A stretch of DNA of 34,490 bases, from the IMG/VR virus record IMGVR_UViG_3300007541_000084, positions 1 to 34,490 of that record; one strand, written 5' to 3'. The notes beneath the pieces are model-generated. The model saw only the letters and a program-made list of their open reading frames with translations. It ran no database searches and was not told the origin of the DNA. This DNA comes from a virus. Taxonomy: Duplodnaviria > Caudoviricetes. This document shows, piece by piece, positions 10,433 to 24,227 of the stretch. Both the position numbers and the translations under genes were made by a program. Position 1 is the first letter of the stretch. Each line of letters starts with the position of its first letter.

Positions 10433-12565
10433 ATGGCGAAGCTTCCAGACGCTGGCGATCTCGGCAACCCGAACTTCCGCCCAGCGCGGTCGTTTTCCAA
10501 CGTGCCCGTGGCCGACTACCAAAGTGCCTTCGGCGCGCTTGGTCGTGGCCTGTCCGATGTGGGTGAGGGCGCGCAGCGCTACGCCATCGAGGTCGATAAG
10601 CGGCTCAAAGACGAGGAAGCCTTCGGCGTCAATCTCCGGCTGGCCGACGCTCAGGTTCAGTTCTCCAGCACGGTATCCGGGCTCGACCCCTCCGACCCGG
10701 AGTTCGCCCAGAAGCGCATGAAGGCGTGGAGCGACACCTTCAAGCCGATCATGGACGGCATCCAGCACGGCGAGAACAAGCGCCGCTTCGGTGAATGGGC
10801 CTATGAAAACGGGGCCAAGATCCAGATCGACAGCGACCGGCTGGCGCTCGAAGCAAACACCGGCAAGACCAAGCTCCAGCTCTCCCAGTACATCGAACAG
10901 CAGAAGAAGCTCGTGGCCGACCGGGTGATCACGCCCGAACAGGCCAGCGCCAACGTCAAGGCGCAGATCGCTCAGGCCCCCAATCTCTTCGAACTCGACA
11001 AGCAGGAACTGCTTCTCAAGGACGCGACCAAGTTCGACGCGGACATCGTCGAGATGACGGCGCTCAACGACGCGGGCGAGTTCTCCGGTGGTGCCATCAT
11101 GCAGGCGCTGGTGCAGGCCGAAAGCTCTGGTGACCCAGACGCGGTATCACCAAAGGGTGCGATTGGGCTTGCACAGGTGATGCCCGAGACGGCGCAGGAG
11201 ATCGCCGAAGAACTCGGCGACAAGACGTTCCTTCAGCTCGATGCAACGCAGCGCAGCGCCTATCTTCGCCGGAAGGACGTGAGCCTCCGATACGGCGCGC
11301 ACTATCTCAACAAGATGCTGAAGCGCTACGGCGGTGATCTCGAAGCTGCGCTCATCGCCTACAACGCCGGGCCCGGCAATGCTGACAAGTGGGTTGAGGC
11401 GGGCCGTAACTACGAGGCATTGCCCAAGCCCGAGGAGACCAAGCCCTACGTCGAGAAGATCTTCGGATTGCTCGGCAGCGATGGCTCCGCACCGCCCACG
11501 GTTGGCAGGCGGGGTAAGCCCGAGGCGGCGATGATCTCCTCGCTTGAGGCCAACCCCGTCTTCCAGTCTCTCCCGGTCGATCAGCAGAACACCGTGCGGG
11601 AGAACGTCCGCAGGCAATACCGCCAGCAGCTTGAAGAGCAGGAGCGCCTCGACATCGTGGCCGGGACGCGGAGCGTCGTCGATTACGCCGTCGAGAACTA
11701 CTCAGATCCCGAGGTGGCGCGCGAGTACCTCCGTGAAAAGATCCAAGATCCGCTTGCATTGGAGGATGGCTTCGCGCTCCTCGACAAGGAGATCGCAGGC
11801 CGCAAGCAGCGCGAAGAAGATCGCAAGACGGAGATGTTCAAGTCTTCCGCCAACAAGGTGATCGAGCTGCGTGATGCTGGTAAGACCAACGAGGCGCTCG
11901 CCGCGATCCCAAGGGATCTTGACGCCGAGGATCGCGAGAAGCTCAGGAAGCTTGCGCTCGATGGCCCGGCGACGACCGATAACGCCAAGGTCGAGGGCGA
12001 CCTCTGGGCGATCTCTTACCGCGACCCCGAAGCCTTCAAGGCCGTGGACCTTACGAAGTACCGGGGCGACCTCACACAGGAGACGCTGGAAAAGTTCGCA
12101 AAGGTTCAGGAAGATCTGAAGAAGCCCGGCGAGACGACGTCGATCAGGACGGTCGGCAGCATGCTCGACAATTACTACGAAGAGCTGGGCATCAAGAGCA
12201 GCAAGGACGAGAACGACATCCGGGCGCGAAACGCAATCGAGCGCCAAGTGGGCAACCAGATCCTCACGCTGGAAAAGCAGCTCGGGCGCAAGGCCGAGAT
12301 GAACGAAATCCAAGAGGTCTTGGATACGACCTTTATGACGTTCTCCACGCCGGGGGATTGGTGGGGCTCTAACCAGAACAGCCTCAAGGATGTCCTCGGT
12401 ACGATGCAGGAGACGGCGGACGAATACGCGATGCCGCTCGACAGTCTCTACGACACGGCCATCACCGACCTCACGAACAACGGCTATGACCCGACGCCGG
12501 AGAACATCAACCGGTGGCTGGGCGACTACAAGAAGTGGCGGCAGCAGAAGGTTACTCCGCAATGA
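10433..12565 (+). CDS. Internal virion/ejection protein with lytic transglycosylase (SLT) domain
   Basis: SLT motifs ESSG..DAVSPKGAIGLAQVMPETA, AYNAGPG and ETKPYV at about 11090-11470, flanked by helical regions. Confidence 0.88.
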   Translation: MAKLPDAGDLGNPNFRPARSFSNVPVADYQSAFGALGRGLSDVGEGAQRYAIEVDKRLKDEEAFGVNLRLADAQVQFSSTVSGLDPSDPEFAQKRMKAWSDTFKPIMDGIQHGENKRRFGEWAYENGAKIQIDSDRLALEANTGKTKLQLSQYIEQQKKLVADRVITPEQASANVKAQIAQAPNLFELDKQELLLKDATKFDADIVEMTALNDAGEFSGGAIMQALVQAESSGDPDAVSPKGAIGLAQVMPETAQEIAEELGDKTFLQLDATQRSAYLRRKDVSLRYGAHYLNKMLKRYGGDLEAALIAYNAGPGNADKWVEAGRNYEALPKPEETKPYVEKIFGLLGSDGSAPPTVGRRGKPEAAMISSLEANPVFQSLPVDQQNTVRENVRRQYRQQLEEQERLDIVAGTRSVVDYAVENYSDPEVAREYLREKIQDPLALEDGFALLDKEIAGRKQREEDRKTEMFKSSANKVIELRDAGKTNEALAAIPRDLDAEDREKLRKLALDGPATTDNAKVEGDLWAISYRDPEAFKAVDLTKYRGDLTQETLEKFAKVQEDLKKPGETTSIRTVGSMLDNYYEELGIKSSKDENDIRARNAIERQVGNQILTLEKQLGRKAEMNEIQEVLDTTFMTFSTPGDWWGSNQNSLKDVLGTMQETADEYAMPLDSLYDTAITDLTNNGYDPTPENINRWLGDYKKWRQQKVTPQ

Positions 12566-15500
12566 ATGATTTCAGCATCGCGTCGTCTTGGGGCAAGCCC
12601 GAGGAAGAGACCGATACCTTCAGCATCGGTAACTCTTGGCGCGAGGAAGAAGACCGCCAGAAGAAGATCCAGCAGAAGATCGTCGAGCGACAGGTCTGGG
12701 ATCGCGACCCGAAGCGCGCTGCCGAGGCTCTGTCTCTGGCCAACGAACGCGGCATCCCGCCCTCGGTCATGTACCGCAAGCTCGACGAGTTCAAGCGCCC
12801 CCCGCAGATCGACTACGACAAGATGCGGCGTGAGGCTCCGGGCCTCGCCGGGCTGATGTCCAGCACATCCTATCTTCCGATCCTGCAAGCCGACGCCGAC
12901 AACCTGTCGTGGGTGGAGCGGAACTGGGGCGAGTTCAACAAGCGCGTCGACAGCGCCTTCGAGAGTTCGGAGCTGGGCCGCCTTGGTTACAAGTGGGCGC
13001 AGGGCACGGCGACAGAAGAAGAGAAGCAACGCGTTCGCGAGCTTCAGCGCCTTCAAGCATCCCGGCCTGATTACGACGTCGCATGGTATGACCCCGGCTA
13101 TCTGCTCGGCATCGTCGGGCAGGCCGCTGTCTCAACCGGCGGCACGGCCATCCGGGCGCTCGACGAAGCAGCGCTCGGCGCTGGCACCGGCCTTGTGACA
13201 GGTGCCACTATCGGTGGCGCTGGTGGCACGGTTGTCGCGCCGGGTTTCGGTACAGGCGTCGGTGTGGTGGGCGGCGGTATCGTCGGCGCTCTCTCCGGCG
13301 CTTCGACCGGCCTGAGCGTCGGCATCATCAAGGAGACCTACGAAGAGCAATACGGACTGACCTTCCTCAACATGGTCACGGCGCTGGATGAGAACGGCGA
13401 CCCCATTGACGAGGACACCGCCCGCTTCGTGGCGACCGGTGTGGGTGCCGCGAACGCGGTGTTGGAGCGGGTGAGCTTCGGCGTCCTGACCAAGAGCTTC
13501 CCCGGTGTCCGTGATTTCCTGAGCAAGGGCACCAGCAAGATCCTCCTCGAAAACCCAGCCGTGCGTTCCAAGCTGAAGCGCATCGGCCAGATCGTCGAGG
13601 CCGGTGCGGCGGAAGGCTCGACCGAACTGGCGCAGAGCGTCATCGAGCTAGAGAGCATGCTGGCGGCGGGGGCCGTTCTCGATGAGCAGGGGAACCCGCT
13701 CAAGGAGCAGCGGGCCCAGTATCCGACGGCGTTCATCGAAGGTGCCATTGGCGGCAGCGGCTTGGCCCTCGGCGGGCAGGCGGTGCAGGCCACCGTCCAG
13801 AGCGTCACGGAGCGCCGCCGGGCAAAGGCCGAAGCCCGGCAGCAGACGCTGATCGAGCTGGGCGACAAGATCCGGGGCAGCAAGGTCACGACCCTGTCGC
13901 CTGAAGCCTTGGCCGAGCATGCCAAGGTCATGGACGAGAACACCCCCTCCCAGATGACCGCTCCGGTCGAGGCCGTGGTCAAGCTGTTTCAGGAGGAGGG
14001 CTTCACCCCGGAACAGATCGAGCAGCGTTTTCCCGGCATCACGGTATCCCTGAACGAGGCTCAGTCCGGTAACGCGGAGGTGAAGCTCTCGGCTGCTGAC
14101 GTCGTGAAGATGGCGCAGCTCAAGGGCTACAACGAGTTCACGGGCGATGTCCGCATCGGGAACACGCCCACGGCCAACGAGGCCAAGGCCGGTGAGGCCG
14201 AGTTCCAGCAGATGATCGATACCGTTCCGGTGGACGATCAGCGGCAGGCCGTCGAGGCATCGATCCAGAACGAGATCACCCAGCAGCTCGTGGCCGCCGG
14301 TCAGGAGAACCGCGCCGCCCAGACACAGGCCAAGCTCTTCACCTCGACGCTCTCGAACCTCGCCCAGCGCGCCGGGCTTGACGTCAATGAACTCTACCGG
14401 CGCTACAATCTGTCCATCGGGGGTGAGCAGGAGGGGCAGGCGGTTGGTGGGGTCAAGCTGGAGCAGGACACGCCGGAGTTCCGCAACTGGTTCCTCGACA
14501 GCAAGGTGGTGGACGAGACTGGCGCGCCACAGGTCATGTACCGGGGCTCTTTGGATGACATTGGTGAGACAGCCTCTCGCGACGGCGTCATCTATTTCAG
14601 CAAAGATCCAAACGTCGCCGCAGGCGGCGAGCGCGGGTTTATCACTGACGAGGTGGCACAAGCTGCCGGGATCAATCCGGCTGACATCGAGCAGCCCTCC
14701 GGTCTCCGTGTGGTTCCTGCCTACCTCTCGATCCAGAACCCGGCAACTCTCGCCGACGTGCAACGCCTCGCGCCCAATGCAAAGACCGTTCGGGAGGCTA
14801 TGCCTGCTTTGAAGGCGGCGGGCTTCGATGGCTACATCTCGGATTATGAAACCGCCGTCTTTGATCCACGACAGATAAAGTCCGTCAACAATCGCGGCAC
14901 GTTCGATCCGAACAATCCCAACATCCTGATGCAGTCTGGTGTTCCGCTGTTCGAGAACCCGCTGCCGATTGAAGGCAAGGCCACCATCAACAAGGTCGGC
15001 CAAGCACTGACTGACCGGCACCAAGACATCTATGGCCGGAAGCTCGATCCCTCGACGAGCGCAGAGGACTACAACCAAGTCCGCGACGACATGATCGAGG
15101 AGATCAACTTCCAGCTCCAGCAGCGGAACAGTGGCGTCGGCTGGTACAGCGCGGATGTCGAGCTGGCGATCCGTCTTCTCTCCGTGGTGTTCCCGTCGCT
15201 TCGCGACAACGTCGCCCACCGCCAACTCCTCCTCATGTACGCCGCCGTCTTCTCCAGTGGCAACGACCCGGACAAGGCGCTTCAGATCTCGACCGAGGCG
15301 TTCGAGACGTTCCTGAAGACTGGCGAGACGCCAGTCGTCCGCGCCGATGCTGCGCGGGCCCGTGGCGTTGACCCGCAGATGACGACCTTCAAGGACAAGT
15401 CCGGTAAGGAGGTCACCAAGGAAGCGGGCTGGACGCAGCGGAGCGAGACCAACGAACAGCAGCTCGCCTTCATCAGGTACATCATCGAGCGCGAGGGTAG

Positions 15501-18500
15501 CCTCGAAGCCGGAATGAACTGGCTCCTGAACGAGCAGCCGCGCGAAGAAATCAACCGCGCGATGACCGAGAGCGGGCTCTACCAAGGCGGTCGCTTCAAG
15601 ACCCGCGCCGAAATTGCGGGCCCACCGGAGAGAGGCGTCCTCGCCTTTGGCCCCAAGCTGGGCCGCTACGCCATGGGCCTTCAGGGTGTGGAGATCGACG
15701 AGGGCGACGTCACCATCGACCTTTGGTACATCCGCACCTACCGGCGCTTGATCGGCGGCCTTCTCGACGGGCCGCTTGATCCCAAGACCAGTATCGTAGG
15801 CCAGCCTAATGATACCGACCGTGAGGTGATCAGACGGCTGACGGGTGACCTCGTTGCCCACTTTGCGGATCGGGGCTATACTGTCGGCGACGTTCAGGCT
15901 GTTCTCTGGTTCTATGAGAAGCGCCTCTGGGCGGCTCACGGTTTGCGCCTCGATGAAGGCACCAACTCTACAGGTGCGAAGCGCTTCCTTGAAGAAAGAG
16001 GATACTATGTCGGATCAAAAATCGGAGAAGCCTATGACCGTGAAGGAGGCACAGCAGCGGCTGGCGTCCTTGGCGGCCAAGAACCCGAACGGCTTATCGG
16101 ACGGCAAAGATCCGCCCGTCGTTTCGTATCCCGGCGGCTTGGTTGGAGCGGTGATGAAGGAGTACGGCTTTACGGAAGAAGAGGCAATTCGAATGATCGA
16201 AAAGTTCGGGGGATAGTCAATTACTACGTCCCGAACACGGCGCTCGTCGACGATCTTACCTATTCCGGCTACGCCGTCATCCCCGAGATCGAAGAGCTTG
16301 ACCCGAAGCGCACACCTGATTTCAGAAAAGCGATCAGTGACGCAAGGGCGGCATCTGAGTTTGGCGCTGCGGTTCACGTCTACAAGGAAGAAGAATACCG
16401 CAACATGCGGCTCTTCCTCACGCCCGACAAGAAAGCTGGTTTTGCGGTCAAGCCCGATGGCGACATCGTCAGCGTGTTTTCAGATGGCGGCGGCAAGACG
16501 GCTGCATTGTTATCTCTTGCCGTTGAGATGGGCGGCACCAAGCTCGACGCCTTCAATACGGTCCTGCCCAAGATATACGCGATCAGCGGCTTCAAGGAAG
16601 TGGGCCGTGATGCGTGGAACGAAGAATACAAAGATCCTGATTGGGATTACGAGACGTTCAAGGCATTCAACGATGGCCGCCCCGATATCGTCTATATGGT
16701 CTACGATGCGGCCTATGATCCCTATGCTGAAGAGGTAACCAATGTCCGAGACGATCAAACCCGCACCCTCTTCCAAGGCGTGGAACCCGAACGCGCCGGA
16801 GACGGAAGAGGACGGTATTCGGCAGGAAGCCTTGCGCCGCTTGAAGGTGCGCCAACTGTCGCAGGGGCTTCTGGCCCCGACCTCAACCTCGTCGCCGTTG
16901 CAGAGCAATACGCCCGCGACAACGGCATCAACCTCAAGCGCCAAGGCTCCTATGTCGAAGTAGACGAGGACCGCGCCCGGCGGATCGCCGCAGCCTATGA
17001 GGCGATGGAGCATGCGCCGCAAGATCCGGTGGTCAAGGAAGCTTACGCCAACCTGATCGTGCAGACAAAGGCGCAGTACGATGCGCTCGTTGCCGCAGGC
17101 TACAGCTTCACGTTCTACGATGACGCCACAGATCCGTACGACGGCAACCCGTGGAACGCAATGCGCGATCTGCGCCAGAACAAGCGCATGGCCGTCTACG
17201 GCACCTACGCCGGTTTCGGCACGGAAGGCGTCACTGGCGCGGAGATCAACGACAACCCCATGCTCGTGGACACCGGCCTTCGCTGGCAGGATCAGACGGG
17301 GGCCGAGCGCGTCGTCACGGCAAACGATCTCTTCCGCGCGGTGCATGATGCCTTTGGTCACGGTCTCGAAGGCGCAGGCTTCCGGGCCCGAGGCGAAGAG
17401 AATGCGTGGCAGGCCCACATCCGGCTCTACACCGGGTCTGCCGTTGCAGCGGTGTCAACCGGCACACGCGGCCAGAATAGCTGGCTGAATTACGGCCCCT
17501 ACGGTGAGAGCAACAAGACGGCCAAGGTGGAGGATACGGTCTTTGCCCGGCAAAAGATTGGGCTACTACCCTCATGGGTATGGGAAGAAGGACGAGCTGC
17601 TGACGAGGCCCCGGAGACGGGGCCTCAGTCGTTAGAGAGGCTCTATCAGAACGCCGTCGATGCCATCGCCAATGCCGACCTGATCACGAACACGCCGGAG
17701 TTCCGGCGGTGGTTCGGCAAGAGCGTGGTCGTGGACGACAACGGCAAGCCGCTGATCGTCTACCACGGCAGCGAGAAGGCGGGCTTCACTGTCTTCGAGA
17801 CCGATGGTGGAAGCGCCAAGACCAAAGGCACCGGGGCGTTCTTCTCGAACAAGCTCTCCAACGCGATGACCTATTCGGGCAAGCACACCATCGTGAACTT
17901 CCCCACGAAGGAAGACGCGCTCGCCAACCCCGGTCGTTACGGCTTCACGGTCGAGGAAGGTGACGACGGCAAGCCCTACATCATCGACGCCGACGGCTAT
18001 CAGACCGAGCTTAACGATGGTGAGACCGTTGATCAGGCGATGGTGCGTGCGGTTGACGATTGGCTCAATAGCGAACGGCTCGCAGGGCCGGAGCAGGCCA
18101 ACGTGCCGGTGTTCCTCCGCATGGAGAAGCCGCTCATCATCGATGCCAATGGCGCGAACTGGAGCAGCATCGGCGCGACGCCTGTCTTCGAGATCCTCGA
18201 TGCCGAAGGCAACGTGATCGGCTCCGCACCGGAAGAGGATCTGTGGGAATACGGCGAGGGTGCCACGCTTGGCAATCAGGATGGTTTCCTTGAAGACGGT
18301 CAAACCACCGATCAGATCGTCCGCGAGGCCCGGCAGTCTGGCGAGTATGACGGCGTCATCATCAGGAACGTCGTCGATGAAGGGCAGTACGGATGGTATG
18401 GCGATCCGTCCGACGTTTACGTCGTCTTCTACAAGAACCAGATCAAGTCGGTTCAGAACCAAGGCACGTTCAGCAACGACGATCCGAATATCCTGAAGCA

Positions 18501-21500
18501 GAAGGCGCGCGGCTTCATCACCTTCTCCGACCGCCGCGACCGCTTCCAGATCACCCTGACCGGCAAGGCCAATTTCTCGACTTTCGTCCATGAGAGCGGT
18601 CACTTCTTCCTCGAAGTGATGCAGGATCTCGTGGCGCGGGGCGAAGCGCCCCAGCAGATCATCGATGACCTTGAGAAGATCCGGCAGTGGACCGGCGTCG
18701 AGGACGGCGGAAAGTTCGAAACCCGGCATCACGAGAAGTTCGCACGCGGCTTCGAAGCCTACCTCCGCGAGGGCCGCGCCCCTGACAGTTCCCTTCAGGA
18801 CATCTTCAACCGCTTCCGGGCGTGGCTCGTGTTCATCTACAAGAAGATGACCGCGCTCAACGTCGACCTCACGGACGAGGTCCGTGGCGTCTTCGACAGG
18901 CTCGTCGCTTCCGACGCTGCCATCGCCGAAGCCCGAACACAGCTCGGCTGGTCGAAGCCCTTGGCGCAGGAAGCCCTTGCCCTGACCGATGCGGAATACG
19001 CCCGGTACGTCGAAGCATGGCAGAAGGCCAGCGACGAGCAGTCGCGCGAGCTGGACGAGCGCATGATGCGCGAGGCCGCTGAAGTCCGCAAAGATCTTTG
19101 GCGTCAGGAGACCGAGCGCCGGGTGGGCGAGGAGATCGACGCCCTCAAGAAGACCCGTGGCTACAAGGCTTGGAAGGCTCTGTCCGAAGGCGAGGGTCTT
19201 GAGGATCTCGGGCGGACGGCCCTGAAGATCGACCCCGAGAGCGTACCCCCGGAGTGGCGGCGCGACACGGTCGGCCTGACACAGGAGGGCGGCTTGCCGC
19301 TGGAGGTGGTCGCCGAGCTGCTTGGGTTCAACTCCGGCGAGGCGATGCTCCAGCTCATCGGCGGTGCCAAGTTCGCGCTCCGCGACATCCCCATCCGCGT
19401 CAAGAAGGCGATGGAGACGGAACACGGCCACCTCGACGCCGCAGCGCTGGCGGATGCCGCCAACGAGGCGGTGATCAAGCCTGTGGGCGAGGTGCTGCTC
19501 TCCGAGTACCGGGCGCTGGCGTCCGCCGCCGGGATCAAGGCCGAGCCGGGCCTTGGCCAGTGGCTCGCGGCCACCGCCAAGCGGAAGGTGCAAGCTCTCA
19601 CACAGCGGCAGCTTGAGCCTAACCGCTGGCGCAGGGCTGAACTCAAGTCCGCTCAGGAAGCTGCCGCCGCTGCGGCGCGCGGCGACAAGCAGAAGGCGGC
19701 TCTGGCCAAGCGCCAGCAGCTCATGGCCGCTGCCATGTACCGGGCCACCATAGAAGCCCAGAAGCGCATCGACACGATCCAGAAGAAGCTGACCCCCTTC
19801 ACCAAGGACAAGCGCCGGGCGCAGCTCGGCAAGGCCGGAGACAGCTACCTCGACGCCATCGACGAGATCCTCGAAGGCATCTCCTTCAAGAACGTCACAG
19901 CCAAGTCTCTCCAGAAGCAGGACCGGCTCGCGGCCTTCCTGAAGGAAGCCGAGGAGAAGGATCTGCCGGTCAACATCCCTGACTATCTGACCAACGCTCT
20001 GGGCAAGCGCAACTACTCGACGATGACCCTCGAAGAGCTGGAAGGCGTTCACGACACCGTGATGAGCATCTGGCATCTGGCGAAGACCAAGAACGAGCTG
20101 CGCGCCCGTAAGGAGAAGCGCGATCTGGAGCAGGCCATCGCCGAGATGGAGGTCAACGCCGAGAAGGCTCTCGGCGATCCGAAGATCGTCGACAAGTTCG
20201 TCTACGGCTGGAAGGACAGGGCGTCAGCCCGCATGAAATGGGTTCGGGCTAACCTGACCAAGATGGAGTTCCTGTTCGGCTGGTTGGACGGCCAGCCCTC
20301 CGGCGGGCTCATGCACCGTTACATCTACCAGCCGCTCACCGACGCGAACAAAGCCAAGTTCGACATCCTGAAGCGCTTCAACACCACGATCATCCAGCAC
20401 ATGCGAAACCTTCCGGCAGAGCAGAAGGCGCGCTGGAACAGCAAGCGCATGCTCCTCGGGCGCGAGGCCAACGGCGCAACGATCATCGCGGCTGCGCTGA
20501 ACCTCGGCAACGAGGGTAACAAGACCAAGCTGCTCGCAGGCTACAGCCTCGACAACCCACAGGGCGAAGCCCGCCTGATGGCCGAGATCAACGCCTTCAT
20601 GCGGAAGGAAGACTGGGACTTCGTGCAGCACATCTGGGACGAGATCGATACCCTGTGGCCGAAGGTCGTGGAGACGACCAAGGCCGCCACCGGCCTCCCC
20701 CCGGAGAGGGTCGAAGCGGTTCCGGTCGTCACCCCCTTCGGCACTTACAAGGGCGGCTACTACCCGGTGGTCTATGACCCGAGCCGGTCGCAGCGGCAGT
20801 TCGAGAACCAGCAGAAGGACAAGGGCCTGTTCTCGACGAACTACCTCAAGCCCACGCTGGGCGACGGTTTCGTCAAGGCCCGCACCAAGTATTCCGCCCC
20901 GATCCTCCTCGATCTCCGGGTGATCTCGCAGCATCTCTCCGAGGTCGTTCACTACGTCACCCACTATGAGGCGGTGACACAGGCCGACAAGATCACCCGG
21001 CACCCTCGCTTCCAGCAGATCGTGAAGCAGCACATGGGCGACGAGTTCTACAACACGATCAGGCCGTGGCTCACCGACATCGCTCGCGATCAGGACACGC
21101 CTGCGGTGACGAAGACGGAGCCCTTTGCGGAGGCGATGCAGTATCTGCGCGGCGGCATGTCCATCGGCGCGATGGGCTACAACATCTTCACGGGTGTGAA
21201 GCAGCTCCTCGGCGTGACGTCCACGCTCGACGCGGTGAAGACCAAGTACTGGATCTCCGGCCTCGTGAAGGCATGGATGTCGCCGAACGCCGTCGCCAAC
21301 TGGAAGGAGGCGTTCGCGAAGAGCAAGGAGCTGGAGCCCTTGATCAGCCAGTTCGACCGCGACATCAAGATGGTCAACGACACCTACGCGAAGCAGGGCA
21401 TCCGCAACACCTTCGACAAGTTCAACGCGCTCGCCTTCGCCCACATTGGGTGGTTGCAGGCGACGGTCAACGTCGCGAGCTGGCACGGTGCCTATGAGCA

Positions 21501-22158
21501 GGCGCTGGCGGAAGGCGCTACGGATGAGGCGGCAGTCGACCGTGCTGACGCGGTCGTCCGCATGACCCAGTCTGCTGGCGCGGTGAAGGATCTCTCGCCG
21601 ATCCAGAGAGGGACGGAGATCAACCGCAACATCTCGATGTTCTACTCGTGGTTCAATGTCCTCTACAACCGGCTCGAAGACATCGCGCGCCAGACGAAGG
21701 GTGTGCGGGATCTGCCCCGCGCGGCAAAGCGCATCGGCGTTCTTGTGATGATGTCAGCGTTGATCGAAGAAAGCTTGAGCCGCGCTTACGAAGAGATCTT
21801 CGACAACGTCGAGGATGACGAGGAAGAGAAGGGCTTCATCCTGACCGTGCTGATGAAGAGCGCGGACACGATGCTCGCCGCCATTCCTCTGGCCCGCGCG
21901 TTCGTCTCTGTGGAGGCGGCAGCGGGGGGCCTCAAGCCCGAGATCTCGCCTGTCATTCGAGTACCGGCGGATTTCTGGCGGACGTTCGAGGCGGCGAAGG
22001 ATCTCGTTTTCGAGCAGGAAGCCCCATCGCGGAGCGAGGTGAAGACGGCAGTGCGAACTGTGTCTGTCCTCACCCACGTTCCGGTGAGTGGCCTCTACAA
22101 TCTGTTCGACGAGTATTTCGGCGAAGAGATCTTCGACGAGAAGCGCAAGGCGCGCTGA
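12562..22158 (+). CDS. Giant polyvalent ejection/DNA-transfer protein (~3198 aa)
   Basis: ATG overlaps the previous TGA. It contains a Gly-rich membrane segment, two ART-PolyVal-like domains, a HhH-glycosylase-like domain, a GNAT-like domain, an HDxxGH domain, a HESGH zincin and a long helical C-terminus. Confidence 0.88.
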   Translation: MNDFSIASSWGKPEEETDTFSIGNSWREEEDRQKKIQQKIVERQVWDRDPKRAAEALSLANERGIPPSVMYRKLDEFKRPPQIDYDKMRREAPGLAGLMSSTSYLPILQADADNLSWVERNWGEFNKRVDSAFESSELGRLGYKWAQGTATEEEKQRVRELQRLQASRPDYDVAWYDPGYLLGIVGQAAVSTGGTAIRALDEAALGAGTGLVTGATIGGAGGTVVAPGFGTGVGVVGGGIVGALSGASTGLSVGIIKETYEEQYGLTFLNMVTALDENGDPIDEDTARFVATGVGAANAVLERVSFGVLTKSFPGVRDFLSKGTSKILLENPAVRSKLKRIGQIVEAGAAEGSTELAQSVIELESMLAAGAVLDEQGNPLKEQRAQYPTAFIEGAIGGSGLALGGQAVQATVQSVTERRRAKAEARQQTLIELGDKIRGSKVTTLSPEALAEHAKVMDENTPSQMTAPVEAVVKLFQEEGFTPEQIEQRFPGITVSLNEAQSGNAEVKLSAADVVKMAQLKGYNEFTGDVRIGNTPTANEAKAGEAEFQQMIDTVPVDDQRQAVEASIQNEITQQLVAAGQENRAAQTQAKLFTSTLSNLAQRAGLDVNELYRRYNLSIGGEQEGQAVGGVKLEQDTPEFRNWFLDSKVVDETGAPQVMYRGSLDDIGETASRDGVIYFSKDPNVAAGGERGFITDEVAQAAGINPADIEQPSGLRVVPAYLSIQNPATLADVQRLAPNAKTVREAMPALKAAGFDGYISDYETAVFDPRQIKSVNNRGTFDPNNPNILMQSGVPLFENPLPIEGKATINKVGQALTDRHQDIYGRKLDPSTSAEDYNQVRDDMIEEINFQLQQRNSGVGWYSADVELAIRLLSVVFPSLRDNVAHRQLLLMYAAVFSSGNDPDKALQISTEAFETFLKTGETPVVRADAARARGVDPQMTTFKDKSGKEVTKEAGWTQRSETNEQQLAFIRYIIEREGSLEAGMNWLLNEQPREEINRAMTESGLYQGGRFKTRAEIAGPPERGVLAFGPKLGRYAMGLQGVEIDEGDVTIDLWYIRTYRRLIGGLLDGPLDPKTSIVGQPNDTDREVIRRLTGDLVAHFADRGYTVGDVQAVLWFYEKRLWAAHGLRLDEGTNSTGAKRFLEERGYYVGSKIGEAYDREGGTAAAGVLGGQEPERLIGRQRSARRFVSRRLGWSGDEGVRLYGRRGNSNDRKVRGIVNYYVPNTALVDDLTYSGYAVIPEIEELDPKRTPDFRKAISDARAASEFGAAVHVYKEEEYRNMRLFLTPDKKAGFAVKPDGDIVSVFSDGGGKTAALLSLAVEMGGTKLDAFNTVLPKIYAISGFKEVGRDAWNEEYKDPDWDYETFKAFNDGRPDIVYMVYDAAYDPYAEEVTNVRDDQTRTLFQGVEPERAGDGRGRYSAGSLAPLEGAPTVAGASGPDLNLVAVAEQYARDNGINLKRQGSYVEVDEDRARRIAAAYEAMEHAPQDPVVKEAYANLIVQTKAQYDALVAAGYSFTFYDDATDPYDGNPWNAMRDLRQNKRMAVYGTYAGFGTEGVTGAEINDNPMLVDTGLRWQDQTGAERVVTANDLFRAVHDAFGHGLEGAGFRARGEENAWQAHIRLYTGSAVAAVSTGTRGQNSWLNYGPYGESNKTAKVEDTVFARQKIGLLPSWVWEEGRAADEAPETGPQSLERLYQNAVDAIANADLITNTPEFRRWFGKSVVVDDNGKPLIVYHGSEKAGFTVFETDGGSAKTKGTGAFFSNKLSNAMTYSGKHTIVNFPTKEDALANPGRYGFTVEEGDDGKPYIIDADGYQTELNDGETVDQAMVRAVDDWLNSERLAGPEQANVPVFLRMEKPLIIDANGANWSSIGATPVFEILDAEGNVIGSAPEEDLWEYGEGATLGNQDGFLEDGQTTDQIVREARQSGEYDGVIIRNVVDEGQYGWYGDPSDVYVVFYKNQIKSVQNQGTFSNDDPNILKQKARGFITFSDRRDRFQITLTGKANFSTFVHESGHFFLEVMQDLVARGEAPQQIIDDLEKIRQWTGVEDGGKFETRHHEKFARGFEAYLREGRAPDSSLQDIFNRFRAWLVFIYKKMTALNVDLTDEVRGVFDRLVASDAAIAEARTQLGWSKPLAQEALALTDAEYARYVEAWQKASDEQSRELDERMMREAAEVRKDLWRQETERRVGEEIDALKKTRGYKAWKALSEGEGLEDLGRTALKIDPESVPPEWRRDTVGLTQEGGLPLEVVAELLGFNSGEAMLQLIGGAKFALRDIPIRVKKAMETEHGHLDAAALADAANEAVIKPVGEVLLSEYRALASAAGIKAEPGLGQWLAATAKRKVQALTQRQLEPNRWRRAELKSAQEAAAAAARGDKQKAALAKRQQLMAAAMYRATIEAQKRIDTIQKKLTPFTKDKRRAQLGKAGDSYLDAIDEILEGISFKNVTAKSLQKQDRLAAFLKEAEEKDLPVNIPDYLTNALGKRNYSTMTLEELEGVHDTVMSIWHLAKTKNELRARKEKRDLEQAIAEMEVNAEKALGDPKIVDKFVYGWKDRASARMKWVRANLTKMEFLFGWLDGQPSGGLMHRYIYQPLTDANKAKFDILKRFNTTIIQHMRNLPAEQKARWNSKRMLLGREANGATIIAAALNLGNEGNKTKLLAGYSLDNPQGEARLMAEINAFMRKEDWDFVQHIWDEIDTLWPKVVETTKAATGLPPERVEAVPVVTPFGTYKGGYYPVVYDPSRSQRQFENQQKDKGLFSTNYLKPTLGDGFVKARTKYSAPILLDLRVISQHLSEVVHYVTHYEAVTQADKITRHPRFQQIVKQHMGDEFYNTIRPWLTDIARDQDTPAVTKTEPFAEAMQYLRGGMSIGAMGYNIFTGVKQLLGVTSTLDAVKTKYWISGLVKAWMSPNAVANWKEAFAKSKELEPLISQFDRDIKMVNDTYAKQGIRNTFDKFNALAFAHIGWLQATVNVASWHGAYEQALAEGATDEAAVDRADAVVRMTQSAGAVKDLSPIQRGTEINRNISMFYSWFNVLYNRLEDIARQTKGVRDLPRAAKRIGVLVMMSALIEESLSRAYEEIFDNVEDDEEEKGFILTVLMKSADTMLAAIPLARAFVSVEAAAGGLKPEISPVIRVPADFWRTFEAAKDLVFEQEAPSRSEVKTAVRTVSVLTHVPVSGLYNLFDEYFGEEIFDEKRKAR
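15854..15882 (+). promoter_or_regulatory. Putative internal sigma70 promoter inside the giant gene
   Basis: TTGCCC-N17-TATACT, with a GCTATA context typical of alphaproteobacterial RpoD promoters, about 125 nt upstream of nested ORF 16007. Confidence 0.6.
16007..16216 (+). CDS. Nested +1-frame ORF A (69 aa, MSDQKSEKPM...YGFTEEEAIRMIEKFGG)
   Basis: RBS GAAAGAGGA precedes the ATG. The composition is protein-like, and the main frame here turns into an R/G-rich linker. Confidence 0.65.
   Translation: MSDQKSEKPMTVKEAQQRLASLAAKNPNGLSDGKDPPVVSYPGGLVGAVMKEYGFTEEEAIRMIEKFGG
16742..16963 (+). CDS. Nested +1-frame ORF B (73 aa, MSETIKPAPSSK...IRQEALRRLKVRQL)
   Basis: RBS GAAGAGGT precedes the ATG. 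Same frame offset as ORF A, located at an inter-domain linker. The Ser/Thr-rich tail may be non-functional. Confidence 0.5.
   Translation: MSETIKPAPSSKAWNPNAPETEEDGIRQEALRRLKVRQLSQGLLAPTSTSSPLQSNTPATTASTSSAKAPMSK
17605..17626. other. Intragenic GNRA hairpin at a domain boundary
   Basis: gaggccccg-GAGA-cggggcctc forms a perfect 9-bp stem, with no clear U-tract. Confidence 0.55.
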
Positions 22159-23177: not shown

Positions 23178-24227
23178 ATGGCAGGACCGCGCATCACAGA
23201 TGAGCAGTGTCTGGAGCGTCACCGCGCATTCAAGAAATACGGTTCGGTGAAGGCCGCCTCGGAAGCGATTGGCATTGGCCGTCAAGCTGTACAGCTCGGC
23301 GTCGAGCAGGCGAGGCTCCGGGGTCTGGTCAAGAATGGGGACGTGCTGGAGTTCCCCGATCTCCCAAGCGGCGACCTTCCAATCGACAAGATCATCGGTC
23401 TCATGGAGGAGCGCAGCACGAAGCGCCGGGTTTCCTTCGACGCCCACACATGGTTCCCGGTCAAGGTAAAGGAGGCCAAGCCCATTGGCATCCTCTGGAT
23501 GGGCGACCCCCACGTCGACGATGACGGCTGCGACTGGGCACTGCTCAAGCGGCACATCGAATGCTGCAAGCAGCCCGGCATGTACGGCGCGAACATCGGC
23601 GACACCACCAACGCATGGGCCGGTCGGCTCATCAAGAAATACGCCGATCAGGAGACGAGCGCGAAGACCGCCCGCAGGCTGGCCGAGTTCCTGATGCTCG
23701 ACGCTGGTATCCGGTGGCTCGTGTGGCTCCTTGGCAATCACGATCTATGGGGCGACGGTGCCGAGATCCTCGCACAGATGGCCAAGCGCCATGGCACCCA
23801 GAAGCTCGTGATGCACGACTGGGAAGCCCGGTTTTCGCTTAATTTTCCTAACGGAGCAAAAGTGAACGTCTGGGCCGCACATGATCTCCCCGGTGACAGC
23901 CAGTGGAACCCCTTGCACGGGCCGGTAAAGGCCGCGCGTTTCGGCCCCGAAGTAGATCTCCTCGTTGTAGGGCACCGTCATAATTGGGGTATCGCACAGT
24001 GGGAGTTGGCGGATAAAGGAACTATTCCAGTTATGATCCGCACTAGGGGCTATAAATTTAATGACGACTACGCCCGGCGCATCGGTAAGTCTGATCAAAA
24101 CGGCGGTGCATCTATTCTCACCATAGTCAACCCGCTCTCGGCGACGCGCGAGGGGCGTATCATGCCCTTCGCCGACATCGAGGCTGGCACGGAGTTCCTG
24201 CAATGGCTGCGATCCCGAGACGCCTGA
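23178..24227 (+). CDS. Calcineurin-like metallophosphoesterase with N-terminal HTH
   Basis: Motifs GDPH, GD, GNHD, H and GHRH, plus HTH-like GSVKAASEAIGIGRQAV. RBS GAGGAG. Confidence 0.88.
   Translation: MAGPRITDEQCLERHRAFKKYGSVKAASEAIGIGRQAVQLGVEQARLRGLVKNGDVLEFPDLPSGDLPIDKIIGLMEERSTKRRVSFDAHTWFPVKVKEAKPIGILWMGDPHVDDDGCDWALLKRHIECCKQPGMYGANIGDTTNAWAGRLIKKYADQETSAKTARRLAEFLMLDAGIRWLVWLLGNHDLWGDGAEILAQMAKRHGTQKLVMHDWEARFSLNFPNGAKVNVWAAHDLPGDSQWNPLHGPVKAARFGPEVDLLVVGHRHNWGIAQWELADKGTIPVMIRTRGYKFNDDYARRIGKSDQNGGASILTIVNPLSATREGRIMPFADIEAGTEFLQWLRSRDA

Follow-up and report, generated by a model that had tools for sequence, protein, structure and literature searches.

The giant gene and its cassettes

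The window, i.e. the whole stretch of 34,490 nucleotides that was analysed, belongs to a temperate, podovirus-like phage. Genes encoding the portal, the capsid, the tail tube, internal virion proteins, and a lytic transglycosylase lie upstream of a giant gene that encodes a large multi-domain protein (Table 1). Its polyvalent-associated domains and its place in the virion module of a phage identify it as a polyvalent protein. Pfam detects an ART-PolyVal domain above the cut-off (E 7e-24) and an LPD22 domain slightly below it (E 4e-6, 27.4 bits for a cut-off of 28.6). The gene strings together exchangeable enzyme-like cassettes, three of which are studied here. The protein would be packaged and delivered to the host. 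We ruled out that it is a MuF polymorphic toxin, because the Pfam and PHROGs scans revealed no MuF domain in it and the gene is ~10 kb away from the portal gene.

Table 1. Features of the giant gene and of the ORFs nested in it (positions in the window).
Feature	Position	Strand	Remarks
Giant polyvalent protein gene	12514..22158	+	Main frame; 3,214 aa; last of the internal-virion-protein block
Predicted HhH-GPD DNA-glycosylase-superfamily fold domain	15055..15945	+	Main frame; model pLDDT 92.7
Promoter-like TTGCCC-N17-TATACT	15854..15882	+	Present, not above chance
Shine-Dalgarno-like GAGGA of ORF A	15998..16002	+	From sequence; 4 nt 5' of the ATG
ORF A, nested +1-frame gene	16007..16216	+	69 aa; fusion of motifs G and N
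Motif G (ORF A residues 10-26)	16034..16084	+	Peptide following the glycosylase-fold domain
Motif N (ORF A residues 44-68)	16136..16210	+	Peptide preceding the GNAT-like domain; family has free-standing bacterial members
GNAT-like domain	16282..16716	+	Main frame; assigned from the annotation of relatives, not from fold
Shine-Dalgarno-like GAGGT of ORF B	16732..16736	+	From sequence
ORF B, nested +1-frame gene	16742..16963	+	73 aa; conserved core (motif H) at 16784-16864
Domain with H-D-x-x-G-H and E-E, partner of ORF B	16834..17610	+	Main frame; model pLDDT 90.6
Perfect 9-bp GAGA-loop hairpin	17605..17626	+	No U-tract; present, not above chance
ART-PolyVal ADP-ribosyltransferase domain	17734..17877	+	Main frame; Pfam, top-scoring stretch

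The structural model of the first cassette points to an HhH-GPD fold, in agreement with the initial annotation of the locus, which had called it glycosylase-like. The top 23 matches of the structural search are all of the HhH-GPD type, with Z scores ranging from 9.9 (rmsd 3.9, 190 aligned) down to 6.1, and the next match scores 4.2. Foldseek gave a weak best match to OGG1 (E 0.18). An invariant Lys (15655-15657) and an invariant Asp (15718-15720), columns K248 and D269 in an alignment of 18 sequences, may correspond to the catalytic Lys/Asp pair that follows the hairpin motif in HhH-GPD enzymes. Relatives of the GNAT-like domain in Streptomyces phages are annotated as acetyltransferases (E about 1e-9). 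The domain had no match in Pfam or NCBIfam, nor did any of 56 members match Pfam. A weak PDB match (2qec, E 0.1) was lost with a larger profile, and the nearest named atlas clusters are DUF2686 and DUF1122 (<0.9). The third cassette has an invariant H-D-x-x-G-H at 17344-17361 and an invariant E-E further on, at 17395-17400, rather than the HEXXH of a zincin-like MPTase. Foldseek, a sequence profile, and a wide structural search found no fold for it (best Z 2.2), although the absence of a match does not imply a new fold.

Two genes nested in the +1 frame

Two ORFs, A and B, lie in the +1 frame of the giant gene. They had been described before, together with their GAGGA and GAGGT sequences, an upstream promoter-like site, and a downstream hairpin, and we found all these elements where they had been placed. 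Both ORFs had been described as starting in linkers. ORF B extends beyond its linker into the HDxxGH domain, whose first 43 codons it overlaps. The expected richness of the main frame in arginine and glycine over ORF A, and the higher AT content of the region, were recovered. Under ORF A, the GC3 of the main frame is 0.45-0.57 and its R+G fraction 0.27-0.32, while in the rest of the giant gene these values are mostly 0.8-0.9 and 0.1-0.2. The GC content is 0.56 at 16001-16500 versus about 0.62 in most segments of the window.

Several observations suggest that the nested frames are translated and selected. Across homologous loci, the wobble bases of the main frame are fixed where the +1 residue demands it, and the third positions of the +1 codons vary. 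Under ORF B, 78-100% of the main-frame wobble bases are fixed (60 loci), and ORF B scores 62.3 bits (E 1e-16) against a profile made without the sequence of the window. In a related contig, the codon changes within ORF A are 5 synonymous and 5 non-synonymous in the +1 frame, and 1 and 8, respectively, in the main frame; upstream of ORF A, the main frame has 12 synonymous versus 1 non-synonymous change. Immediately ahead of the GNAT-like domain, an open +1 frame comes to its stop in 60 of 66 viral loci and 45 of 69 genome loci (the other 6 and 24 lack a qualifying +1 ORF), compared with 14 and 0 for the +2 frame. The nested peptides have their own Shine-Dalgarno-like sequence, start codon, and stop codon, and gene callers predict them as proteins in many contigs (181 entries of the N family and 278 of the H family). 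Among the 24 runs listed there was no RNA holder, which is neutral as to their expression. On this comparative evidence, we regard ORFs A and B as real, conserved +1-frame genes under selection, far beyond what is expected by chance. The GenBank records of the three cultured phages examined list only the large gene and leave the nested ones unannotated, and literature searches outside subscription journals and bioRxiv supplements turned up no account of genes nested within polyvalent ones.

ORF A has an alternative start at ATG 16034, with GGAG at 16024-16027, 6 nt upstream. Its two motifs were scored with profiles made without the sequence of the window, giving 11.9 bits for motif G and 19.2 bits for motif N, and none of 1000 shuffles reached either score. 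The case for motif G is made of 15 loci, the lack of +1 stops, and the shuffle test. ORF A is a fusion of motifs G and N, such as forms when two cassettes become neighbours. Direct searches with ORF A returned a single match, a near-identical protein of 53 aa, and the atlas search returned none. Neither ORF A, nor ORF B, nor the N alignment could be placed in a family of Pfam, PHROGs, or NCBIfam, apart from sub-threshold ANTAR matches. Main-frame conservation is poor over motif N. This motif resembles a small helical bundle, with weak matches to ANTAR and DNA-binding families. Conserved main-frame residues account for part of the constraint on motif H. Outside the short motifs, the nested peptides are variable and rich in serine.

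The initial annotation had proposed that the two ORFs form a separate transcription unit with a promoter and a hairpin. We rejected this idea, since both signals are at chance level. When the gene was shuffled 100 times among synonymous codons, a promoter-like site of equal quality arose one or more times in 55 of the shuffled versions, and a perfect hairpin with a stem of 9 bp or longer in 45. Dinucleotide shuffles contained 1.2 +/- 1.4 promoter-like sites versus 2 observed. Upstream of the homologous nested starts, promoter-like sites (at least 9/12) were found in 3 of 39 cases, versus 1 of 39 control windows. The hairpin is absent from the terminator-like sites and has no equivalent in the 15 homologous segments examined. 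There is a weak hint of a promoter in the related contig: among the 26 of 37 differences listed, none falls at 15877-15921, a stretch that excludes the -35 box, and 13 fall at 15922-15993.

Each peptide goes with one domain

The +1 ORFs had been suggested to be tied to particular cassettes. This holds, although the pairs are not all those initially envisaged. Every profile match lies in the +1 frame and beside its own domain (N: 70/70, H: 81/81, G: 23/23), and a six-frame search of the same loci found no match to the N, H, or G profiles away from it. These counts are partly circular because the profiles were made from peptides chosen beside each domain, and only two scans started from the peptide alone. 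Motif G lies behind the glycosylase-fold domain, motif N in front of the GNAT-like domain, and motif H over the start of the HDxxGH domain. Hence, the pairing of ORF A with the glycosylase-like domain is right for its first third (motif G), whereas its C-terminal part (motif N) goes with the GNAT-like domain. ORF B had been assigned to the preceding GNAT-like domain, but the H matches place it with the domain that follows. The spacing between peptide and partner is kept across viral and actinobacterial carriers, whereas what lies on the opposite flank varies without restriction.

The motifs also occur in other combinations. Fusions of G and H were found in two loci (L014 and L131), and 6 of 150 catalogue proteins are H+N or G+H fusions. 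The coupling of peptide and domain extends to carriers unrelated to one another: it is present in a giant protein of a Limnohabitans phage, in a minor capsid protein of a Microbacterium phage, and in Rhodococcus and Nocardia proteins of about 400 aa. The homology of the actinobacterial peptide with N is not established (probability of 12%). In Streptomyces phage R4, the GNAT-like domain is a free gene with no N match. A scan for the DNA pattern of motif G gave 34 matches, of which 8 are in the +1 frame behind a glycosylase-fold domain, all on contigs already in the dataset; none of the three domains is near the other 26. A small cognate gene is linked to an enzyme-like gene, as in toxin-immunity and type II toxin-antitoxin pairs.

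Free-standing members of the N family in bacteria

Small genes in genomes lacking the enzyme-like domain were demonstrated for the N family only. In one bacterial genus, 8 of 23 genomes carry a free-standing copy, placed among housekeeping and island genes. These free-standing chromosomal genes are under purifying selection: their within-clade pN/pS is 0.07-0.17 (12/12 pairs), and their old main frame has accumulated 2-6 stops. None of the five N-carrying genomes of the genus that were tested has a match to the GNAT-like domain, in searches of incomplete genomes made without a positive control. Among the metagenome loci retrieved with the N peptide alone, 10 of 15 have no adjoining GNAT-like domain. 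Two loci (L234 and L235) retain a stub of the first residues of the domain. Some free-standing genes of the family have a glycosylase-associated peptide in front. Such orphans are rare in three broader samples (1/401, 0/28, and 0/401 genomes). Two of the eight copies of the genus are damaged at the 5' end, and another locus of the family (L248) is interrupted. The search for the N peptide gave no match in plasmids and one record in cultured phages.

What the nested peptides may do

The peptides are likely built-in antidotes, a role already proposed in the initial annotation, because each accompanies one domain and bacteria keep one of them without the enzyme. We lean, with slightly better than even confidence and from sequence comparisons, towards the view that they are cognate antidotes of the enzyme-like domains, captured by bacteria as orphan immunity genes. 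Each of the three cassettes carries a small +1 peptide at one edge. These peptides would arise from internal translation starts on the late mRNA of the giant gene, and a separate promoter would therefore be unnecessary. The main-frame domains would be toxic to the producing cell, and the peptides would bind and silence their cognate domain during the synthesis of the virion protein. The peptides would then stay behind in the producer cell, so that the enzymes would be active in the next one. Bacteria capturing a peptide gene would gain immunity to that enzyme. The broader proposal, that polyvalent genes hold one hidden +1 antidote per cassette, that shuffling builds multi-antidote fusions, and that bacteria capture them as immunity against injected enzymes, is plausible but we hold it more tentatively, at somewhat below even confidence.

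Alternatively, the peptides could be independent small effectors or regulators, if the cassettes derived from two-gene operons (a small gene and an enzyme) that came to be read through, the linkage being inherited without physical partnership. The free-standing copies that function without the enzyme in the same genome, the loci where the domain lacks a peptide, and the helical-bundle character of motif N with its weak ANTAR and DNA-binding matches would all fit. Yet the spacing to the partner is maintained while the neighbours on the opposite side are exchanged, and the persistent in-frame fusions of motifs would better suit modular binders, so that we find this explanation unlikely. Domain-specific coupling and a position in the internal virion block would suit just as well chaperones assisting the folding, packaging, or ejection of the adjacent domain for the capsid assembly or release of the giant protein. 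But a chaperone would be useless to a bacterium without the domain, and the orphans are under purifying selection; the same arrangement also occurs in the actinobacterial proteins of about 400 aa, which may not be virion parts. We thus consider such a role rather improbable. The clustering of starts and stops at domain borders might indicate translational devices with minor products, either internal starts with frameshift or re-initiation that free the domains, or Shine-Dalgarno sites pacing their folding. This is very unlikely, since the +1 amino acids are conserved through synonymous codons and the free-standing copies keep the protein and lose the main frame. Finally, it is hardly credible that the ORFs are untranslated and simply result from conservation of the main frame or of a motif in the DNA or RNA: motif H does lie over conserved main-frame residues, but wobble bases are fixed where the +1 frame requires while its own third positions vary, motif N sits in a poorly conserved stretch of the main frame, and gene callers list hundreds of such proteins.

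Relation to known systems

In lambda, the smaller gene of the Rz/Rz1 pair lies entirely inside the larger one, in its +1 frame, and the two products cooperate. This is one fixed lysis pair with a lipoprotein, whereas the nested peptides are several, look cytoplasmic, and are tied to exchangeable cassettes. Orphan immunity genes of polymorphic toxins are small cognate genes that persist in bacteria lacking the toxin and lie in islands, close to integrases and insertion sequences. The orphan N genes differ in that the presumed toxin is virion-delivered and the orphan stems from an out-of-frame nested gene.

In the Rpn genes-within-genes toxin-antitoxin systems (PMC10327210), a small inhibitor is translated from within the toxin gene. 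The nested peptides are in another frame, have no sequence in common with the carrier, and belong to the phage. We ruled out an intragenic antitoxin of the Rpn type, as ORFs A and B use the +1 frame and do not form a separately translated C-terminal part of the carrier. Small cognate ORFs beside MuF toxins of temperate phages have been proposed to be immunity genes (89.4% of 191 toxin genes; Jamet et al. 2017, PMC5576092). These toxins likewise combine a head-associated protein, a variable enzymatic domain, and a small adjoining ORF. In Microbacterium phage UtzChips, the gene of a minor capsid protein includes the GNAT-like domain studied here, together with a nested +1 ORF. However, the MuF immunity ORFs described there are separate genes 3' of a C-terminal toxin, whereas the nested genes are inside the carrier, often upstream of the domain, several per gene, and able to fuse.

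Polyvalent domains have been proposed to be conflict effectors (Iyer et al. 2017, PMC5512222), and the proteins treated in the passages concerned share with the giant protein the ART-PolyVal and LPD22 domains, a GNAT-like domain next to the ART, and modular recombining cassettes. The main text of that study never mentions overlap, linker, or glycosylase, and its passages on these domains describe neither nested genes nor genes for immunity. Polyvalent virion proteins are widespread, and cloning a domain that is toxic to its producer would be difficult. If every domain had a cognate peptide, this would account for the safe production of such cargo and would allow the expression and assay of the domain. 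The arrangement can be tested at the bench, because it is carried by the cultured Limnohabitans phage DC33, Microbacterium phage UtzChips, and Rhodococcus strains. Free-standing bacterial copies annotated as hypothetical proteins, for example WP_297728719.1, would become candidates for phage immunity. If the broader proposal is true, these genes would represent a class of anti-phage immunity genes that has gone unrecognised, and would provide an inhibitor for each uncharacterised polyvalent domain.

Nested genes in a giant polyvalent gene

The 34.5-kb virus record, about 70% complete, comes from a podovirus-like phage. Genes for the portal, capsid, tail tube and internal virion proteins lie on the + strand, those for DNA polymerase A, a helicase and an integrase on the - strand. 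Its giant gene encodes a product with matches to ART-PolyVal and LPD22 and hence a polyvalent protein, as defined in PMC5512222. The ART-PolyVal match is broken into three stretches, and the domain therefore contains insertions. The nested +1-frame genes lie along a stretch of three consecutive main-frame domains. The model of the first domain (pLDDT 92.7) had only HhH-GPD-type proteins among its top 23 structural matches (best Z 9.9). The second is called GNAT-like only by the annotation of relatives. The third has an invariant H-D-x-x-G-H and E-E and gave a confident model, for which the structural search returned nothing above Z 2.2. It is very common in phages: the viral collection contains 321 confirmed stretches, and identity is 66-77% for the best 80.

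Coordinates of features in the window and at the compared loci (L numbers)
Feature	Sequence	Positions	Remark
Giant gene	window	12514-22158 (+)	3,214 aa
First domain	window	14914-16014	segment modelled
Promoter-like site	window	15854-15882
Overlap of promoter-like site with main-frame insertion	window	15866-15874	three codons, relative to three homologues
ORF A	window	16007-16216	+1 frame
Second domain	window	16282-16716	GNAT-like
ORF B	window	16742-16963	+1 frame
Third domain	window	16834-17610
Hairpin	window	17605-17626
ART-PolyVal match	window	17734-18490	three stretches
Metallophosphoesterase gene	window	23178-24227	between lysis gene and integrase
Second small gene after free-standing N gene	L240	264-563
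Second small gene after free-standing N gene	L242	1797-2147
134-137-aa gene adjoining orphan N gene	L329	5094-5498; 15002-15406
134-137-aa gene adjoining orphan N gene	L331	1775-2188
134-137-aa gene adjoining orphan N gene	L333	1956-2369
134-137-aa gene adjoining orphan N gene	L334	1017-1421

ORF A and ORF B are under selection

Comparison across loci shows that ORF A is a gene in which two peptide motifs, G and N, are fused. The viral comparison set, drawn partly from the best 80 of 217, comprised 66 non-redundant loci that carry the GNAT-like domain, counting the window. In 60 of them, 28 or more open +1 codons lead up to a stop located 80-150 nt ahead of the domain, a configuration that +2 shows in 14 of 66. 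An ATG with a ribosome-site match of at least 4 nt is present in 39 of 59 of these loci, the window excluded. The common C-terminal motif of the +1 peptides, N, ends in G-L-T-R-E-x-A-x-E-M-A-E-x-F-G-F. In the 69 non-redundant genome loci (from 78 among the best 80 of 89), such an ORF with ribosome site and ATG occurs in 45 in +1 and in none in +2, and 24 of the 45 encode an actinobacterial-type peptide whose homology to N could not be demonstrated. Motif G (M-T-E-R-E-A-M-x-R), with instances chosen by a permissive pattern, follows the glycosylase-fold domain in +1 in all 15 other loci of at least 40% identity, and the 25 codons examined from the last glycosylase-fold helix onward are stop-free in +1 in 16 of 16 loci. 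Residues 10-26 of ORF A match G and residues 44-68 match N, each better than 1000 of 1000 shuffles.

A related contig from another sample, in a comparison resting on 26 of 37 differences, bears out the proposal of the initial annotation that ORF A is under selection in +1: main-frame wobble positions take 12 of the 14 listed differences upstream of ORF A vs 4 of 12 within the ORF (Fisher p 0.014). Across ORF A, the +1 frame counts 5 synonymous against 5 non-synonymous codons and stays free of stops; the main frame counts 1 against 8.

Judging from codon constraint, ORF B, whose core is motif H, is also a gene. The best 80 of 321 third-domain loci gave 74 distinct segments, of which 63 were <90% identical; the 60 with the anchor motif were used and 3 dropped. 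Under the core (main-frame codons -13 to +4), wobble bases are 78-100% fixed when only sequences with the most frequent residue are counted; four-fold sites in codons +9 to +55, also in the third domain, reach 30-59%. Selection on ORF B is thus upheld by this synonymous-constraint check. In the core, the +1 residue is often more conserved than the main-frame one (87% vs 47% at codon -11), and +1 codons vary synonymously (Glu GAG 30, GAA 22; Thr ACG 23, ACC 12, ACA 12; Gly four codons). Wobble fixation together with this variation shows that it is the +1 protein, not a nucleotide motif, that is under selection. The +1 peptide is unbroken in 54 of 63 other non-redundant third-domain loci, and ORF B matches a profile made without the window at E 1e-16. 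The catalogue proteins P0259, P0288, P0341 and P0402 also contain motif H, as tandem repeats and at the C-terminal end of larger proteins that look unrelated.

All features named in the initial annotation were found where it placed them: the promoter-like site, the hairpin, and the two ORFs, each with its ribosome-binding site. As signals of a separate transcription unit, the promoter and the hairpin do not exceed chance: among 100 synonymous-codon shuffles of the gene, 55 had one or more equally good sites and 45 one or more equally good hairpins. The hairpin lacks a U-tract. Promoter-like sites scoring at least 9 of 12 lie upstream of 3/39 homologous nested starts vs 1/39 control windows.

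Each peptide goes with one domain

By its position across loci, each peptide belongs to one domain. In a six-frame search of the loci collected up to that point of the analysis, with counts that include redundant loci and profile training sequences, all 70 N matches lie in +1 before the GNAT-like domain, all 81 H matches where the third domain begins, and all 23 G matches after the glycosylase-fold domain. The suggested pairing of peptides with cassettes thus stands, but its partners change: ORF B, initially assigned to the GNAT-like cassette, goes with the third domain, and the N part of ORF A with the GNAT-like one. In L014 and L131, whose cassettes adjoin in a different order, the fusion matches that order (G+H), and 6 of 150 catalogue proteins are fused peptides of the H+N or G+H type.

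The arrangement extends beyond this phage group. Limnohabitans phage DC33 has it in its giant gene and Microbacterium phage UtzChips in its minor capsid gene, although neither record annotates it, and it recurs in ~400-aa Rhodococcus and Nocardia proteins. It is not universal: a qualifying ORF is absent in 6/66 viral and 24/69 genome loci, and in Streptomyces phage R4 no ORF with an N match accompanies the acetyltransferase gene, which stands alone there. The DC33 record (L011, PQ492659.1) is classed under Inoviridae despite its 39 kb and 9.4-kb polyvalent-type gene. In ~400-aa proteins with a C-terminal GNAT-like domain (L253-L309, L321, L325; Rhodococcus, Nocardia, others, plasmid pHG203), a well-conserved Trp-rich +1 ORF of ~50 aa stops ~122 nt ahead of the domain anchor. 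L071, L137, L151, L154 and L162 have a third type of +1 peptide, placed after distant glycosylase-like domains, and their consecutive +1 ORFs form trains parted by single stops.

Free-standing copies in bacteria

Genomic context indicates that bacteria retain the hidden genes in the absence of the enzyme. Scanning 26 of 64 parts of the collection with the N peptide alone gave at least 15 loci: 5 of 15 are nested before a GNAT-like domain, and 10 lack such a domain and have a closed main frame. Nine of these ten were inspected for context: they carry ribosome sites of their own, and their surroundings include insertion sequences, an integrase, guaA together with a toxin-antitoxin-like pair, or metabolic genes. 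The copy in L248 is interrupted. In L234 and L235, the first residues of the GNAT-like frame persist after the stop, which points to capture from a phage cassette.

The N family has 181 entries in the protein catalogue, including WP_297728719.1, annotated in Limnohabitans sp. Rim8 and nearly identical to the nested ORF of L071. Among the 120 listed entries, 66 start with a peptide whose nested matches all come after distant glycosylase-like domains (L175, L187, L188); these entries are therefore free-standing analogues of ORF A. Whole genomes gave N-family matches in 1/401 of one family sample, then in 8/23 of that genome's genus, and in 0/28 and 0/401 of two other samples. The 8 genus copies lie in chromosomal regions of 35-39% GC, with a GGAGG site and 2-6 stops in the old main frame; the 5' end is damaged in 2 of them. 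Their pN/pS is 0.07-0.17 within clades (12 pairs) and 0.36-0.45 between clades (16 pairs, uncorrected). The GNAT-like domain, sought in five of these genomes, which are incomplete, was matched in none.

In L240 and L242, the end of the second small gene matches the +1 ORF 3' of the DC33 GNAT-like domain, which suggests a two-gene orphan array. The 134-137-aa gene, present twice within one 20-kb island (L329), may be another captured immunity gene.

Proposed role

We somewhat favour the view that the peptides are cognate antidotes. They would be translated by internal initiation on the late mRNA; the enzyme-like domains may be toxic to the producing cell, and each peptide would bind its cognate domain, shield the producer until the cargo is packaged, and be left out of the virion. 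We favour it because each peptide is tied to one enzyme-like cassette, the peptides fuse in modular fashion, and orphan copies are under selection in bacteria that lack the enzyme. From what is established about polymorphic toxin systems, this is the pattern expected of immunity proteins (PMC5576092). It is rather unlikely that the peptides are independent effectors inherited with the domains as linked pairs, and less likely still that they are domain chaperones. With the +1 amino-acid sequence itself under selection, translational devices seem improbable and by-products highly improbable.

Searches of the open literature turned up no account of polyvalent genes with out-of-frame genes inside them, and the words "overlap" and "linker" have no occurrence in the main text of the founding polyvalent paper (PMC5512222). 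The nearest published logics are the Rpn intragenic antitoxins (PMC10327210) and the MuF toxin-immunity pairs (PMC5576092). If the cognate-antidote reading holds, we would class the nested +1 peptides as a variant of toxin-immunity pairing.
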